Positions 5,315 through 11,315 of a DNA stretch of 64,000 nt are shown here, in pieces. Below the pieces are notes generated by a model. The model saw only the letters and a list, made by a program, of their open reading frames with translations, was not told where the DNA came from and did no database searches. The stretch covers positions 353 to 64,352 of the forward strand of contig JBEIDC010000005.1 of the NCBI GenBank assembly GCA_040383665.1, given 5' to 3'. How positions within the stretch are numbered: position 1 is the stretch's first letter; the number at the start of each line of letters is the position of its first letter. Origin of the DNA: Caulobacter sp. GTDB lineage: Bacteria > Pseudomonadota > Alphaproteobacteria > Caulobacterales > Caulobacteraceae. Both the position numbers and the translations under genes were made by a program.

Positions 5315-6526
5315 CTAGTCGCGGCGTTGGGCGCGGATGCGTTGGCTCAGCATATCGAAGCGCCGGTCCAGATCATCGCGCTCGGCGGCGGTCAGGCCGT
5401 TGCGGCGGTAGTCGGCCTCCATCCGCGCAAGCACCTGGAAGTCGGCGCGGAGCTGGTCGGCCTCGTTCCGCGACAGCGAGCCGTCGCGGACCCCGGCGTC
5501 CATGCGGGCGTCGAGGTTGGTCTGACGCTGGTTGATGGAGGTCCAGGACCCGTCGTCATCCCGACGGTCGTCGCGGATGCGGGCGCTCAGCAGATCGAAG
5601 CGACGGTCGAGATCGGCGCGCTCGGCGGCGGTCAGGCCATTGCGGCGGTAGGTCGTTTCAAGCCGCGCCAGCGTCCGCAGGTCAGTGCGCAGGCGGCTGG
5701 CCTCGGCCTGGCTCAGCGAGCGGTCGCGGAGGCCGGCGGTGATGCGGGCCTCAAGGTTGGCCTGACGCTGATTGATCGAGGTCCAGTCGGCCTGGTCATC
5801 CCGCCGATCAGGCTGGATCCGCAGGCTCAGGCTGTCGAAGCGGCGGTCGAGATCGGCCCGCTCGTCGTTGGACAGGCCGCCATAGTTGTAGCGACGCTCG
5901 AGGCTGAAAAGCGAGGTGAGGTCGCGGCGAAGGGTGGTGACCTGGTTGCGAGTCAGGGTGCCGTTGCGCTCGCCCTGGACGATGCGGCGTTCCAGCCACT
6001 CGCCGCGACGGCTGATCGACACCCATTGGTCGCGCGAGGCGCCGTAGCCCCAGCCCTGCTCGCCGAAGCGGGGATCGTAGCGGGGATCGCCGTAGCCGGT
6101 CTCGCCCCAGGCCGGATAGCGCGCGCCCGGCTGATAGAGGTAGCGACCGTCATCCCCGCCCAGCAGCACGCCGGCGATGGCCCCGATGATGGCGCCCGGC
6201 AGTCCCCCGGACTGGCCGGACGACGAACCCGACCGTTCGATGTAGGCGCCCGCGCGCCCTTCGGCGCCGACGCAGGACAGCACGCCATCGCGGTTGCCAA
6301 GGTCAGAGCGGCAGTAGGGGGCGTAGATCGAGCTCCAGCGATAGCGGCCGTCATTGGCCCGGCAGACGGCGGTGATGTAGCCGCTGTCCAGCGACTGTAC
6401 GTCTTCGCAGGAATTGCCGAGGCTCTGGGCCGGCGACATGCGGTAGCCCGACTGGGCGGCGGCCTGGGAGCCGGCGAAGGTCAGGGCGCCGGCGGCGATG
6501 GCGGCCAGCAGGTGGGTCTTGGTCAT
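5315..6526 (-). CDS. Secreted protein: CVNH-like Cys domain, glycine-rich linker, three ~75-aa tandem repeats
   Basis: Signal peptide; SCEDV...AVC...YCRSDLGNRDGVLSC; repeats WxSINQRQxNLxARxxAGxRDxSLS...GLTAAERxDLDRRFD. Confidence 0.8.
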   Translation of the reverse strand: MTKTHLLAAIAAGALTFAGSQAAAQSGYRMSPAQSLGNSCEDVQSLDSGYITAVCRANDGRYRWSSIYAPYCRSDLGNRDGVLSCVGAEGRAGAYIERSGSSSGQSGGLPGAIIGAIAGVLLGGDDGRYLYQPGARYPAWGETGYGDPRYDPRFGEQGWGYGASRDQWVSISRRGEWLERRIVQGERNGTLTRNQVTTLRRDLTSLFSLERRYNYGGLSNDERADLDRRFDSLSLRIQPDRRDDQADWTSINQRQANLEARITAGLRDRSLSQAEASRLRTDLRTLARLETTYRRNGLTAAERADLDRRFDLLSARIRDDRRDDDGSWTSINQRQTNLDARMDAGVRDGSLSRNEADQLRADFQVLARMEADYRRNGLTAAERDDLDRRFDMLSQRIRAQRRD

Positions 6527-6637: not shown

Positions 6638-7231
6638 TTAAGGTTGCGCGGGGGCCGGAGCGGGGTCTGCGTCAAGCCGCAGGAAGCTGACCCGCGCGGC
6701 GCCGTAATCCCGCGTGTCCAGCACCGTGTAGCCCGGCGCCGAAAGGTCGGCCTCGTCGCTGCCGCGCTCGACCAGCACCAGGGCGCCGGGCTTCAGCCAG
6801 CCGCCTTCGGCCAGGCCCGCCAGCGCCCGCTCGGCAAGGCCCTTGCGGTAGGGCGGGTCCAGGAAGGCCATGTCGAAGGGCTCGCCGGCGCTGGCCGGGC
6901 GCGGGCCGAGGTCCGTGGCGTCGCGGCGATGGATTCGGGTGGCGCCGAACAGGCCCAGGGCGTCGATATTCTCGCGGATCGCGCCGCGCGCCGCCTCGTC
7001 GGTTTCCACGAACAGGCAGAAGGCCGCGCCGCGCGAGATGGCCTCGAAGCCCAGGGCGCCCGACCCGGCGAACAGGTCCATGATCCGCTTGCCCTGCAGC
7101 TCCGGCGCCCAGGCGGCGTGCTCGAGAATATTGAAGACGGCCTGCCGCGCGCGATCGGAGGTCGGCCGCGTGCCCTGGCCGTCGGGCGTGATGAGGTTGC
7201 GGCCCCTCAGGCCGCCGGAAACGATACGCAA
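6638..7231 (-). CDS. rsmD: 16S rRNA m2G966 methyltransferase RsmD
   Basis: MRIVSGGLRGR, TRPTSDRARQAVFNIL, DLFAGSGALG and FLDPPY motifs; TTG start. Confidence 0.95.
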   Translation of the reverse strand: MRIVSGGLRGRNLITPDGQGTRPTSDRARQAVFNILEHAAWAPELQGKRIMDLFAGSGALGFEAISRGAAFCLFVETDEAARGAIRENIDALGLFGATRIHRRDATDLGPRPASAGEPFDMAFLDPPYRKGLAERALAGLAEGGWLKPGALVLVERGSDEADLSAPGYTVLDTRDYGAARVSFLRLDADPAPAPAQP

Positions 7232-7235
7232 GGGC

Positions 7236-7880
7236 TCAACTCCACCGCAGCGGCGGCGCCTGCTCCTTGAGTCGCAGCAGGGCGTCGCGCAGCCCGTCCA
7301 TAAACTCCGTGCGTCGCCCGTGCCAGTGCAACGGCTCGCCGACCAGCACCGCGCAGTTCATCGGCACCGGGATCATCTCGCCCTTGGGCAGGACCCGGCC
7401 GGCGCCCTGGATCCAGACTGGCGTCACCGGCGCTTCGGGAAAGGCCTCGGCCAGACGGGCGACGCCGCTCTTGAGGCGCGCCATCTCGTCGGTGGCGTCG
7501 CCGCGCGTGCCTTCCGGAAAGACGACGATGATGTCGCCGGCCGCCAGCGCCTCGCGGGCCGGGGCCAGCACGTCCTCGCCGCTGGCCACCCTGTCCCGCG
7601 CCACCGGCACGATGCCGATCATGTGGCGCGAGAACCAGCCGATCACCGGATCCTTCAGGAAATAGTCCGCCGCCGCCGCCGGCCGCACCCGCATCACCGC
7701 GCGCGAGGGGAAGATGCTGAGCAGCAGCAGGGTGTCCATGTGGCTGTTGTGGTTGGCTGCCACGATGGCGGGCCCCTTCAGCGGCAGGTGCTCGCGTCCG
7801 GTGACATCGGCTCCGGTCATGAACCGGGCGATCGGCCGCACGATCAGCAGCAGCAGCAGCCATCGCAGCAAGCGGATCAT
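7236..7880 (-). CDS. Lysophospholipid acyltransferase (PlsC-like)
   Basis: ANHNSHMD and VFPEGTRG motifs; ATG overlaps the upstream TGA. Confidence 0.9.
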   Translation of the reverse strand: MIRLLRWLLLLLIVRPIARFMTGADVTGREHLPLKGPAIVAANHNSHMDTLLLLSIFPSRAVMRVRPAAAADYFLKDPVIGWFSRHMIGIVPVARDRVASGEDVLAPAREALAAGDIIVVFPEGTRGDATDEMARLKSGVARLAEAFPEAPVTPVWIQGAGRVLPKGEMIPVPMNCAVLVGEPLHWHGRRTEFMDGLRDALLRLKEQAPPLRWS

Positions 7881-8842
7881 CAGAACGTCTCCAGCGCGAA
7901 AAAGGCCAGGAGGTGGAAGTAGATCGGCGCGGTGAAGGTCAGGCTGTCGATACGGTCCAGGATGCCGCCGTGGCCGGGGATCAGGTGCGAGGTGTCCTTG
8001 ACCCCGATGTCGCGCTTGATGGCGCTCATCGTCACGTCCCCGGCGAAGCCCGCCACCGGCAGCACTACCGCCACGATCGCCAGCCCCAGCCCCTCCAGCG
8101 GCGTGAAGAGCGGCCCTGTGAACCAAATGAGAGCGGCGGTCGTGGCCCAGCCGCCGAGGAAGCCCTCCCAGGTCTTGTTGGGACTGACCTTGGGAATGAT
8201 CTTGTGGCGGCCGAAGAGCTTGCCCCAGACGTACTGGGCCACGTCGTTGAACTCGGTCGCGACCAGCAGGAAGAACACCAGCCCCGCCGCTCCGGCCGGC
8301 AGGTCGACGTCCGATGTTCGCATCAGGAAGGCGACGTAGCCGATGTTGTAGATGCAGGTCATCAGACCCCAGTGGAACATCGCCACACTGGACAGATAGC
8401 CGCGTGTCTGGCCGATCACCGCCATCAGGTACGGCGTGATCAGGAAGGCGTAGACCGGGATCAGCACCAGGTAGATGCCGTAGATGTCCAGCGCCACGAA
8501 GGCGTAGTTGACCGGGATCGACAGATAGGCGGCCAGGATGATCAGCCGGTCCTCGCGCCGCGTGGGGGCCAGCGACAGGAACTCGCGCAGGGCGATGAAC
8601 GACACGACCATGAACAGCAGGGTGGTCGCCTGCCAGCCGGCCAGCAGCGCCGCGGACAGCAAGCCGATCATGACCACCCAGCTGGCGATCCGCTGGCGCA
8701 GCTCGGTGTAGTCCTTGTCGCGTCGGGTCACGGTCAGCAGGGCGGCGATGACCGCGCCCAGGACCAGGATGCCGCCAACTCCGGCCAGCCCCCACATCAG
8801 GGCCGGCGGCTGGGCCGTCAGGAAGCGCGTGATGATGTCCAA
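7880..8842 (-). CDS. Phosphatidate cytidylyltransferase, YnbB-like paralog
   Basis: NDVAQYVWGKLFGRHKIIPKVSPNKTWEG and SAIKRDIGVKD...PGHGGILDRIDS motifs; multi-TM. Confidence 0.92.
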   Translation of the reverse strand: MDIITRFLTAQPPALMWGLAGVGGILVLGAVIAALLTVTRRDKDYTELRQRIASWVVMIGLLSAALLAGWQATTLLFMVVSFIALREFLSLAPTRREDRLIILAAYLSIPVNYAFVALDIYGIYLVLIPVYAFLITPYLMAVIGQTRGYLSSVAMFHWGLMTCIYNIGYVAFLMRTSDVDLPAGAAGLVFFLLVATEFNDVAQYVWGKLFGRHKIIPKVSPNKTWEGFLGGWATTAALIWFTGPLFTPLEGLGLAIVAVVLPVAGFAGDVTMSAIKRDIGVKDTSHLIPGHGGILDRIDSLTFTAPIYFHLLAFFALETF

Positions 8843-8917
8843 GCCTCGACCCCGCCGGTGAACCGCACCGCCGAACGGAGGTTGCCGAGCGCGGCGTTCC
8901 GGTCAAGGCTCCGTCGT

Positions 8918-9301
8918 ATGGAACGCCTTCTGAAATCGAGCCCGGTCCATATCGCCTTCGGCTTTCTGGCCATGGGCGGCTGGGCGCTGTTCGCCAACCG
9001 CGACCACGGCCTGGCGGGGGCCTGGCTGCCGGCGCTGGTCCAGGGGACTCTCTCCGGCGCGCTGACCGGGGTGCTGAAGAAGACGCTGGAGGCCCTGGAC
9101 GGGCTGCTGCGGGGGGCGATGGCCTGGGCCGTTCCGCCGGCCATCACCGCCGGCTCGATCCTGGCCCTGCTCTCCCTCGTTCACACCGCCATCGGCACGC
9201 CGGAGGTGATCGCCACCATCGCCGTGCCCTGGTCGGTCTCGACCCTGTACGCCATCGTCTACAACGCCGGCCTCGTCCGGGCCCGCCGGAACGCCGCATG
9301 A
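8918..9301 (+). CDS. Small hypothetical membrane protein
   Basis: 127-aa hydrophobic ORF, TGA overlaps next ATG. Confidence 0.7.
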   Translation: MERLLKSSPVHIAFGFLAMGGWALFANRDHGLAGAWLPALVQGTLSGALTGVLKKTLEALDGLLRGAMAWAVPPAITAGSILALLSLVHTAIGTPEVIATIAVPWSVSTLYAIVYNAGLVRARRNAA

Positions 9302-9975
9302 CCGAGACGCCAGAGACCCCCGAGAACAGGCGCCCCTTGAAGACCCGGTCCGCCGGCTGGGCCGGGGCGCTGGCCTCGGCGCTGGGCAAGGCCGGGGTCA
9401 GCCCGGACGCCATTTCCTTCGCCTCGGTCGCCATCGCCGTGCTCGGTGCGGCGGCCTTGGGCGTCAGCGGCAGCGTCGAGGGCGGCGGTCGTATCGCCTG
9501 GCTGCTGCTGGCGGCGGTCTGTATCCAGCTGCGGCTCCTGGCCAACATGCTCGACGGCATGGTGGCGGTGGAGCACGGCCGGGGCGGCCCGGCCGGGCCG
9601 ATCTGGAACGAGCTGCCCGACCGCATCGCCGACGGCCTGTTCCTGGTCGCGGCCGGATACAGCGTCGTCGCCTCCGGGCTCGACCACGGCGCCTGGCTGG
9701 GCTGGCTGACCACCGTGCTGGCGGTGCTGACCGCCTATGTCCGCGAGCTCGGCCGCGGTCTGGGCTTTCCCGCCGACTTCTCGGGCCCGATGGCCAAGCC
9801 GCACCGCATGTTCGCCCTGACCGTGGCCTGCCTGGTCTCGATGGCCGAACCGCTGTGGGGCTGGCGCGGCGAGACCCTGCTGATCGCGCTGGCGGTGATC
9901 GCGCTCGGTTGCGTGGTCACGGTCTGGCGGCGCACGGCGCGGCTGGCGAAGGGGTTGAGCGAGCGGGCAGGGTAA
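9298..9975 (+). CDS. CDP-alcohol phosphatidyltransferase, YnbA-like
   Basis: ANMLDGMVA...G..WNELPDRIAD matches the DxxDGxxA...GxxxDxxxD motif; RRPLKTR N-terminus. Confidence 0.9.
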   Translation: MTETPETPENRRPLKTRSAGWAGALASALGKAGVSPDAISFASVAIAVLGAAALGVSGSVEGGGRIAWLLLAAVCIQLRLLANMLDGMVAVEHGRGGPAGPIWNELPDRIADGLFLVAAGYSVVASGLDHGAWLGWLTTVLAVLTAYVRELGRGLGFPADFSGPMAKPHRMFALTVACLVSMAEPLWGWRGETLLIALAVIALGCVVTVWRRTARLAKGLSERAG

Positions 9976-9982
9976 TGGCTTT

Positions 9983-10153
9983 CCTCTCCCACTTGGGAGA
10001 GGGGACCAGCCGGAGGCTGGTGGAGAGGGACACGCCGCCGATCGTCGTGCGGGCGCAGCGTTCGACGCCATCTACTTCCCGGGCAGCCTTCAGCCGGAAG
10101 CGCTTCCCGCTCCACCATGCTCCGCATGGTCCCCCTCTCCCAAGAGGGAGAGG
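9983..10153. repeat. Gene-less copy of the cctctccc...gggagagg inverted-repeat element
   Basis: ~48-bp imperfect IRs at 9983-10030 and 10105-10153 between convergent stop codons. Confidence 0.85.
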
Positions 10154-10154
10154 A

Positions 10155-11315
10155 CTAGCGGCGCTTCGGACCCGAAGGCTTCCCGCCCGGTTTCGCACCA
10201 CCCGCCGGCGTCTTCGCATAGGGATTATCCACCCGGTCCCGCTGGGCCACCACCGGCCGCGCGGACTTCGGCGTCTCGACCCATTTCTTCTTCACGTCGC
10301 CGGGCTTCTTCGGGGTGCGCAGGCCGCCGGGCGGCTTGGGTTTGGCCTTGGCCCAGCCGGCCTTCTTCGGCTGGCGCTCGCCCTTCAGCTCTCCGGTCTC
10401 CTGGCCGGGGCGAGGGCCCTTGCGCTGGGGTTTGGGCGCGGTCGCCTCGTGCGGCGTGCCGCCGGCCTCGCCGGAGGGACGGCGACGACCCGGGCCGCGC
10501 GCGCCCTTGAACTGCACGGCGGCGCCCTTGGGCATGTTGTCCGCCGGAATGTAGTCGGCCAGCAGCTCGCGGATGACGCGGGGGCCGACCTCCTCGACCT
10601 CGCCGGCGCCCAGGTCGCCCAGCGAGAAGGGGCCGTAGCTCAGGCGCAGCAGGCGATTCACCTTCAGGCCGATGGACTCCAGCACACGTCGTACCTCGCG
10701 GTTCTTGCCCTCGGTCAGGGTGACGGTGATCCAGACGTTGCGCGCGCCGTCGCGGTCGCCGGTCGCCTTGTCCAGACGGGCGTCGATCGGGCCGTAGCGG
10801 ACGCCCTCGATGGTCACGCCATCCTTCAGCTTGTCGAGCCGCTCCTGGGTGGCGTAGCCGAAGGCCCGGGCGCGGTAGCGGCGGATCCAGCCGGTCTGCG
10901 GCAGCTCCAGCGCCCGCGACAGCTCCCCGTCGTTGGTCAGCAGCAGCAGGCCCTCGGACGCCAGGTCGAGGCGGCCGATGGAGATCACGCGCGGCAGCCC
11001 GTCGGGCAGGGCCTCGAACACTGTCGGCCGGCCCTGGGGGTCGTTGTGGCTGGTCAGCAACCCGACCGGCTTGTGATAGCGGAACAGCCGCACCGGCTCG
11101 GGACCGCCCACCACCTCGCCGTCGACCGTGACGATGTCGCCGGGCAGCACCTTGACGCCCGGCGTGGTCAGGGTCTGGCCGTTGATGGCCACGCGGCCGG
11201 CCTCGATCAGGCGCTCGACCTCGCGGCGCGAGGCGACGCCCGCCCGGGCCAGCACCTTGGCGACACGTTCGTGGTCGGAAGAATCGGAGGGGTCGGAAGA
11301 CGGTCCTGCGGGCAT
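10155..11315 (-). CDS. rluB: rRNA pseudouridine synthase (RluB/RsuA family)
   Basis: ERVAKVLARAGVASRRE S4 domain; GRLDLASEGLLLLTNDG; EGKNREVRR. Confidence 0.92.
   Translation of the reverse strand: MPAGPSSDPSDSSDHERVAKVLARAGVASRREVERLIEAGRVAINGQTLTTPGVKVLPGDIVTVDGEVVGGPEPVRLFRYHKPVGLLTSHNDPQGRPTVFEALPDGLPRVISIGRLDLASEGLLLLTNDGELSRALELPQTGWIRRYRARAFGYATQERLDKLKDGVTIEGVRYGPIDARLDKATGDRDGARNVWITVTLTEGKNREVRRVLESIGLKVNRLLRLSYGPFSLGDLGAGEVEEVGPRVIRELLADYIPADNMPKGAAVQFKGARGPGRRRPSGEAGGTPHEATAPKPQRKGPRPGQETGELKGERQPKKAGWAKAKPKPPGGLRTPKKPGDVKKKWVETPKSARPVVAQRDRVDNPYAKTPAGGAKPGGKPSGPKRR

Follow-up and report, generated by a model that had tools for sequence, protein, structure and literature searches.

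The DNA examined here is a 64,000-nt stretch of a Caulobacter sp. genome (contig JBEIDC010000005.1, positions 353 to 64,352; hereafter the window). Positions 7236-9975 hold a cassette of two divergent, translationally coupled gene pairs, which encode an acyltransferase, a paralog of CDP-diacylglycerol synthase, a small membrane protein and a CDP-alcohol phosphotransferase. We consider it probable that these genes constitute a ynb-type phospholipid pathway that is accessory to the main routes, complete in itself, and yields a minor lipid. The genes and the spacer between the two pairs are the following:

7236-7880, minus strand: PlsC/LPLAT-family acyltransferase, 214 aa, ATG start (PF01553)
7880-8842, minus strand: YnbB-type CDP-diacylglycerol synthase (CdsA) paralog, 320 aa, TTG start (PF01148)
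8843-8917: divergent intergenic spacer, 75 bp
8918-9301, plus strand: 127-aa membrane protein with four predicted transmembrane helices (AlphaFold2)
9298-9975, plus strand: YnbA-type CDP-alcohol phosphotransferase, 225 aa (PF01066 and predicted fold)

An initial annotation of this DNA had described both pairs as translationally coupled and as diverging across 75 bp, and the gene coordinates confirmed this description. The ATG of the acyltransferase gene overlaps the TGA stop of ynbB by one base within a TGATG at ~7878-7882, the small gene and ynbA share an ATGA stop/start overlap, and the spacer measures 75 bp on the premise that ynbB starts at the TTG at 8842. At the position of this start, several, more distant relatives have an ATG and the closest ones have a CTG in place of the TTG, so that a start at Met16 instead of TTG 8842 is also possible. 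Comparison of the intergenic sequences of 29 loci revealed a block, TTGCCGAGCGCGGCGTTCCGGTCAAGGCTCCG (8882-8913), that is conserved among close relatives and ends 4 nt ahead of the ATG of the small gene; this block may be the promoter of a leaderless or near-leaderless transcript. A scan with E. coli-type promoter and terminator patterns found neither in the cassette.

Kinship of the three enzymes with YnbB, YnbA and housekeeping lipid enzymes

Judged by its sequence, the CdsA paralog belongs to the YnbB subfamily. It matched PF01148 (CTP_transf_1) with 217 bits against a cut-off of 24, and it aligned over its full length (294-307 aa, 194-279 bits) to three YnbB proteins, namely those of E. 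coli (38% identity over 296 aa, 194 bits), of an E. coli IncK2/Z plasmid (51% identity, 279 bits) and of the Rhizobium etli plasmid p42b (40% identity, 202 bits). The match to CdsA, either from E. coli or from the same genome, was limited to ~115 C-terminal residues (82-117 bits). The same pattern has been published for YnbB and CdsA, whose N-terminal halves differ, E. coli YnbB having an N-terminal ‘gate’ domain unlike that of CdsA (PMC7018664). The E. coli protein makes CDP-diacylglycerol in vitro and does not substitute for CdsA in bulk lipid synthesis (PMC7018664), and its overproduction brings back MPIase in E. coli (PMC6362211, PMC7018664).

The acyltransferase matched PF01553 with 87 bits and carries an N-terminal membrane anchor, an HX4D motif in the form NHNSHMD, and an FPEGTR motif. 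Its sole solved relative by sequence was the Thermotoga PlsC (5kym, E 6.6e-11). Its score against TIGR00530, the 1-acyl-glycerol-3-phosphate acyltransferase model, was 62.6 bits and thus below the cut-off of 102.95.

The transferase scored 21.2 bits against PF01066, marginally below the cut-off of 22, and its top NCBIfam matches were the archaetidylinositol-phosphate and phosphatidylinositol-phosphate (PIP) synthases (NF045883 and NF040950), whose cut-offs of 170 and 180 bits are far above the scores of 51 and 60 bits that it obtained. Identity with E. coli YnbA was 28% over 108 residues. Our alignment revealed the motif N83-x2-D86-G...N104-E105-x2-D108-R109-x2-D112, in which N83, D86, G87, N104, E105, D108 and D112 were invariant among 24 orthologs. 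The resulting signature, NxxDG...NExxDxxxD, is common to the window protein and to the YnbA proteins of E. coli K-12, the E. coli plasmid and R. etli. Relative to the D1xxD2G...D3xxxD4 motif, Asn takes the place of the first and the third Asp, and the second of these Asn residues is followed by an invariant Glu; at both altered positions, the other PF01066 protein of the genome and RsPIPS keep Asp. These features place the protein in the YnbA family of CDP-alcohol phosphotransferases and, together with the full-length YnbB matches, bear out the initial description of the cassette as YnbA/YnbB-like.

An AlphaFold2 model of YnbA (predicted local distance difference test score, pLDDT, 90.4) matched 19 chains of the CDP-alcohol phosphotransferase family, whose fold has six helices, at E < 0.001 in Foldseek. 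The scores by group of structures were:

Phosphatidylinositol-phosphate synthases: TM-score 0.70-0.79, root-mean-square deviation ~2.9 Å, E ~1e-5
AF2299 and IPCT-DIPPS: TM-score 0.65-0.72, E 2e-4 to 5e-4
PgsA: TM-score 0.46-0.50, E 0.02-0.04
Choline phosphotransferases: TM-score 0.51-0.62, E 0.01-0.2

The closest solved fold is therefore that of the PIP synthases (M. tuberculosis PgsA1, 6h53/6h59; Renibacterium PIPS, 5d91), with which YnbA shares only 22-26% identity. To place the residues of the pocket, we used a profile alignment to M. tuberculosis PgsA1 and the residue roles given in PMC6506517. In PgsA1, D68 and D89 are ligands of Mg-1, D93 is the proposed catalytic base, and R94, K135, R152, R155 and R195 bind the phosphate of inositol phosphate (PMC6506517). 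The metal-site residues D68, D71 and D89 correspond to N83, D86 and N104 of YnbA, whereas the catalytic base is kept as D108 and the five phosphate-binding residues correspond to R109, R149, K167, R170 and R212, four of which were invariant among the 24 orthologs and the last, R212, nearly so. Because the base and the phosphate-pocket residues are conserved, we infer that YnbA would still deprotonate a hydroxyl acceptor, and that this acceptor would bear a phosphate or a similar anionic group. The first metal site, in turn, appears less acidic than in the known members of the family.

Kinship with the PIP synthases could mean that YnbA is itself a bacterial PIP synthase and that the cassette makes inositol lipids. 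Both the best sequence matches and the best structure matches, which are to PIP and archaetidylinositol-phosphate synthases, would agree with this, as would the conservation of the inositol-phosphate pocket, including the Arg that follows the catalytic Asp. We nevertheless consider this explanation very unlikely. The genome (3.33 Mb in 220 contigs, 99.6% complete) contains no myo-inositol-1-phosphate synthase domain (PF01658), which makes inositol phosphate an improbable acceptor; moreover, both NCBIfam scores fall short of their cut-offs, two of the four signature Asp residues are Asn, and no PIP phosphatase is linked to the cassette.

Another member of the same superfamily that we weighed is the cardiolipin synthase of the eukaryotic and actinobacterial type, which would join CDP-diacylglycerol to phosphatidylglycerol, with the acyltransferase acting as a tafazzin-like remodeller. 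The gene content does resemble that of the mitochondrial route (a CDP-diacylglycerol synthase, a CDP-alcohol-type synthase and a PF01553 acyltransferase), and no homolog of E. coli ClsA was found in the genome by tblastn. The conserved basic pocket, however, suits a soluble phosphorylated acceptor. The genome also encodes a phospholipase D-family (PF13091) protein of ~500-580 aa that is a possible cardiolipin synthase, and such a protein occurs in 126 genomes out of a sample of 151 from the same family as this genome, with or without the cassette and thus in no complementary pattern. This makes a cardiolipin synthase the least probable of the assignments considered here.

The rest of the genome supports a separation of the cassette from housekeeping lipid synthesis, because a cdsA and a probable pgsA of its own lie elsewhere. 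A second PF01148 gene, on contig C39, stands in the canonical frr-uppS-cdsA-dxr context and is the housekeeping cdsA, and exactly one other PF01066 gene was found, on contig C91, whose canonical DxxDG...DxxxD motif makes it the probable pgsA. The cassette and the housekeeping PlsC-CdsA-PgsA route draw on the same three enzyme superfamilies, and their reactions follow the same logical order; they differ in that the cassette YnbB has an N-terminal half unrelated to that of CdsA, and in that YnbA lacks the canonical motif present in the probable PgsA. The set of acylation, activation and head-group transfer put forward in the initial annotation thus finds support in the gene complement as a self-contained route, distinct from the housekeeping cdsA and the probable pgsA.

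The likeness to the housekeeping enzymes also allows the cassette to be read as a back-up or condition-specific version of PlsC-CdsA-PgsA, in which YnbA would be a phosphatidylglycerophosphate synthase acting on glycerol-3-phosphate and only phosphatidylglycerol, perhaps with other acyl chains, would be formed. The three enzyme families are indeed those of the acidic-phospholipid pathway, the acceptor pocket suits a phosphorylated small polyol, the phosphatidylglycerophosphate phosphatases of the cell would render a dedicated phosphatase unnecessary, and no head-group supply gene is linked. Yet YnbA matches no NCBIfam PgsA model and its predicted fold is far nearer to the PIP synthases than to PgsA (TM-scores of 0.70-0.79 against 0.46-0.50), the genome already has a probable PgsA with the canonical motif, and bulk phospholipid synthesis is not supported by the YnbB of E. 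coli. On balance, a back-up route seems unlikely to us.

A core shared with ynb systems of enterobacteria and rhizobia

The E. coli K-12 operon ynbA-ynbB-ynbC-ynbD (b1408-b1411) resembles the cassette in three respects: the similarity of YnbB extends over the full length of the protein, including the N-terminal half that is foreign to CdsA, the YnbA signature is the same, and the genes are translationally coupled in both. It differs from the cassette, whose genes are divergent and which has a PlsC-type acyltransferase and the 127-aa four-helix protein in place of YnbC and YnbD. Within YnbA, the Arg of the ‘AR’ motif of the K-12 protein is Val in the window, and the window protein has an Arg after the catalytic Asp. 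The hydrolase (YnbC, a hydrolase-methyltransferase) and the phosphatase (YnbD) of such clusters had been noted as missing from the locus, and we found this to hold genome-wide: no homolog of YnbD was found anywhere in the genome, and YnbC gave only weak generic hydrolase matches. Neither was found in 113 related loci, apart from one weak match 6 kb away from the cassette.

Plasmids carry YnbB-type genes too: 184 plasmid records gave a match, and Rhizobium accounts for 124 of these. In R. etli CFN42, plasmid p42b carries a three-gene operon ynbA-acyltransferase-ynbB (RHE_RS22520-22510). The conjugative E. coli IncK2/Z plasmid NZ_CP027341 (locus L136, 52460-56377 and downstream) carries ynbA-ynbB-acyltransferase-ynbC, followed by a ynbD that an IS66 element has cut to 62 codons; its YnbB is nearer to that of the window than the chromosomal YnbB of E. 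coli is. These loci thus contain the same three-enzyme core as the window in another gene order, and they are plasmid-borne whereas the window cassette is chromosomal. When the R. etli p42b and NZ_CP027341 loci were searched with the family profile of the small protein, neither yielded a member. Taken together, these comparisons indicate that the trio of acyltransferase, YnbB and YnbA is the common core, to which YnbC and YnbD in enterobacteria and the small protein in the present lineage are specific additions. The word ‘minimal’, applied to the pathway in the initial annotation, is accurate in that the three-enzyme core is the widespread unit.

J-domain genes adjoin the ynb core in two settings that are unrelated to each other, as a cbpM gene with a J-domain gene in R. 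etli p42b (locus L137) and as a 217-aa DnaJ-domain open reading frame (ORF) beside the acyltransferase gene in a Phenylobacterium (L067). This may be a coincidence.

Conservation of the cassette and its small membrane protein

Conservation of gene order was assessed in the 80 best public loci. All four genes were present together in 72 of them, which answers in the affirmative the question of co-occurrence in other genomes, and in six of the eight remaining loci the contig ended before the missing gene was reached. Two loci (L070 and L083) showed only the small gene, ynbA and rluB, with an upstream contig edge nearby (0.4 and 3.5 kb). The small gene lay directly upstream of ynbA in each of the 77 loci whose contig extended that far. 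The persistence of this order and of the four-gene set across loci argues against a chance arrangement. The following features surround the cassette in the window:

6638-7231, minus strand: rsmD (16S rRNA methyltransferase), downstream flank; ORF call, with orthologs flanking the cassette
9982-10154: repeat resembling a miniature inverted-repeat transposable element (MITE), 173 nt, in the ynbA-rluB spacer; identified by its inverted repeats
10155-11315, minus strand: rluB (23S rRNA pseudouridine synthase), upstream flank; ORF call

The insertion of the cassette between rluB and rsmD, as originally proposed, was borne out by the relatives, since rluB lies directly upstream of rsmD in 9 of the 14 same-family genomes without a cassette. 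Orthologs of rsmD flank the cassette in 43 and those of rluB in 42 of the 80 loci. The cassette occupies this site in Caulobacter, Phenylobacterium and Brevundimonas and lies outside it in Hyphomonadaceae, Terricaulis and Rhizomicrobium. No recurrent neighbours were found outside this site, the genes seen there being those of an AraC regulator, fumarase, a J-domain protein and KdpA. In three genomes from two other alphaproteobacterial families, and in a metagenome-assembled genome labelled Mesorhizobium, all four are transcribed in one direction as an operon in the order acyltransferase, ynbB, small gene, ynbA, with 35-47% identity. As the linkage outlasts both rearrangement and relocation, the cassette is probably a functional unit. 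Its minus-strand arm may be co-transcribed with rsmD in the window, given that only 4 nt separate the acyltransferase stop from the start of rsmD.

Several loci depart from the four-gene form. Nine genomes, confirmed with the family profile, have the three enzyme genes without the small gene; one locus (L010) has lost both ynbB and the acyltransferase gene but retains the other two genes; and in four genomes (L036, L028, L032 and L033) ynbA is the only cassette gene left, at or close to the rsmD-rluB site. In one of these four (L036, 8181-8849, genome G071) the NxxDG motif reads GxxDA, which suggests a decaying remnant. Loci without the small gene were scattered among loci with it on the YnbA tree, where well-supported branches force at least five changes in its presence and parsimony counts 10. 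Since the small gene has been lost repeatedly, at least five times, while the other three genes stayed, its product is a dispensable accessory partner and not a core step of the pathway.

Some Caulobacter genomes have further genes between ynbB and the small gene, and these insertions are heterogeneous (a major facilitator superfamily transporter, a LysR regulator, RtcB, a histidine kinase). A fatty-acid-hydroxylase-family gene (PF04116, 94 bits, 271 aa; 7110-7925 in L054) lies close upstream of the small-gene/ynbA pair on the same strand and recurs in seven Caulobacter loci (L054, L052, L063, L064, L071, L083 and L010). It has no close homolog in the present genome and may be an extra lipid-modifying member in that Caulobacter sub-clade.

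The small protein itself matched no Pfam or NCBIfam model. Its AlphaFold2 model is confident (pLDDT 89.9) and consists of four helices, with both termini predicted to be cytoplasmic, in agreement with the distribution of Lys and Arg. Motifs are found in helix 1 (GGWAxxAN), in helix 2 (QGxxSxxxT) and between helices 3 and 4 (HxxxGTPE). Among 51 diverse members of the family, W22, N27, Q42 and T94 were invariant and G20, G43, S46, T50, H89, P95 and T100 nearly invariant; in the predicted model, these conserved positions line up as a polar stripe that starts in the middle of the membrane and reaches both periplasmic loops. The family comprises 422 close homologs, and a search of 1.84 billion representatives gave 397 clusters at 50% identity. 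Comparison of the model with the folds in the PDB gave no convincing match (best E 2, TM-score 0.36). The structure prediction suggested at the outset for 8918-9301 therefore produced a confident four-helix model, and no PDB fold that would point to a function. With neither a Pfam family nor a solved fold matched, the protein belongs to an undescribed four-helix family.

The initial annotation had proposed a carrier or flippase, a role for which we found no backing in detectable homology to any known flippase or other family. Weak Pfam matches to GtrA (PF04138) were found in 3 of the 51 members (best E 0.011), and a GtrA-like flippase was rejected on the basis of an hhalign probability of 1.8% against a profile of 27 GtrA sequences from relatives. 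The distant members of the family, in other proteobacterial classes, do not stand beside ynb genes, one lying by pyrG and another after pcm-nlpD-rpoS, and hence only the alphaproteobacterial branch is tied to YnbA. One distant member, P0382 (907 aa), continues into a complete penicillin-amidase domain (PF01804, 611 bits), with a fifth hydrophobic segment as the link. It could be a true fusion or two genes merged in gene calling; the join probably runs through the signal peptide of the amidase, and we set it aside as uninformative about function.

Repeats that resemble mobile elements occur at the locus and in its relatives. The MITE-like element at 9982-10154 is bounded by terminal inverted repeats of 23 nt, which are 96% complementary, and has inner arms of 40 nt. 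Other contigs of the genome hold about ten more full-length copies with 77-83% identity; the element is not a component of the pathway. A hairpin-rich extra insert of ~130 bp, which resembles another small mobile repeat, was seen at ~7800-7960 in the ynbB/small-gene spacer of four Caulobacteraceae loci (L047, L050, L055 and L059), where the promoter-like block by the small gene is kept. Farther out in the window, the minus strand at 5315-6526 encodes a protein of 403 aa that has a signal peptide and is Cys-rich in its N-terminal part. It also contains three modules of ~75 aa in tandem, which follow the pattern WTSINQRQxNLxAR...RRNGLTAAERxDLDRRFDxLSxRI and then an Arg/Asp-rich stretch.

Proposed pathway and lipid product

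The steps of the accessory pathway that we favour were deduced from the families of its members. The PlsC-like acyltransferase would supply or remodel a phosphatidate-type lipid, which the YnbB-type cytidylyltransferase would convert with CTP into a private pool of CDP-diacylglycerol. A private pool would fit the behaviour of E. coli YnbB, which makes CDP-diacylglycerol without sustaining bulk synthesis. YnbA would then move the phosphatidyl group from this pool, at the cytoplasmic face, onto a soluble acceptor alcohol that probably carries a phosphate or another anionic group, and the product would be a minor ‘phosphatidyl-X(-phosphate)’ lipid. Examination of the neighbours of related loci revealed no head-group supply gene recurring next to the cassette, for which reason a common metabolite is the probable acceptor. 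The 127-aa protein, being translationally coupled to YnbA, would be its lineage-specific helper; our best guess, which is purely conjectural, is that it binds the new head group or moves it towards the outer leaflet.

Among the papers available to our search, none assigns a function to YnbA, and we found nothing on the alphaproteobacterial cassette. The earlier statement that the lipid product of ynb clusters is not well defined is thus in line with published work. A named lipid, 6′-phosphatidyl-glucosyl-diacylglycerol, regarded as a genus-wide marker of Brevundimonas, was considered as the product and rejected, given that, in the genus that matches the named Brevundimonas loci, the cassette is present in only two genomes and absent from at least four others; its occurrence in Caulobacter, Phenylobacterium and Hyphomonadaceae also disfavours this lipid.

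The effect of YnbB on MPIase opens a different route, in which the cassette would prime a diacylglycerol-pyrophosphate glycolipid like that of E. coli, YnbA would transfer the phosphatidyl group of CDP-diacylglycerol to a sugar-1-phosphate at its phosphate, and passage of the product across the membrane would be aided by the small protein. Apart from the restoration of MPIase by overproduced YnbB (PMC6362211, PMC7018664), this could fit the less acidic N-D-N-D metal site and the basic pocket of YnbA, which might accommodate an anionic nucleophile, and the literature has not separated the enzyme of the second step from CdsA/YnbB. The published model, however, has CdsA/YnbB carry out both steps and gives YnbA no part in them, the retention of the catalytic base D108 is what a hydroxyl acceptor would lead one to expect, the cassette has no linked glycosyltransferase genes, and MPIase has been described solely in E. 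coli. For these reasons we hold an MPIase-type product to be quite improbable.

The altered signature also invites a more far-reaching proposal, that the YnbA-type enzymes form a distinct catalytic subclass, defined by Asn-Asp-Asn-Asp and the invariant Glu, which makes a lipid class undescribed in Proteobacteria, and that the small protein represents a new family that presents or translocates the head group to the periplasmic face. In that case two kinds of lipid come into question, a phosphatidyl-(sugar or polyol)-phosphate and, as in the MPIase anchor, a head group linked through diacylglycerol-pyrophosphate. We regard this proposal as conceivable but doubtful.

Several observations weigh against the accessory pathway as we have outlined it. 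The cassette is patchy, since of the 151 same-family genomes 34 have YnbA and 21 have the small gene, and some loci keep YnbA alone, so that the pathway would be dispensable. The Asp residues that bind Mg-1 in PgsA1 (D68 and D89) are both Asn in YnbA (N83 and N104), and the chemistry of YnbA may therefore differ from the textbook reaction, or the enzyme may use another donor. The acyltransferase could act after the head-group transfer and not before it. Homology lends no support to the role given to the small protein, and no lipid product, transcript or phenotype is on record for any YnbA.

What was known before is an orphan lipid pathway of the ynb type; what the present locus adds is a minimal three-enzyme core with an undescribed four-helix partner. 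Few operons for lipid enzymes in E. coli still lack a known product, and the ynb genes are one such case. The locus shows that the conserved unit is the three-enzyme core, which is widespread in Alphaproteobacteria, symbiosis-era plasmids of Rhizobium included, without the hydrolase and the phosphatase of E. coli. Such a pared-down cassette in culturable bacteria would offer a simpler system in which to find the lipid; Caulobacter ginsengisoli, C. mirabilis, Phenylobacterium sp. Root700 and Rhizobium etli are among the carriers of the cassette or its core. The comparison also provides a biochemical prediction for YnbA, namely a phosphorylated acceptor, a retained catalytic base and an altered metal site, and brings to notice an unannotated family of small membrane proteins.

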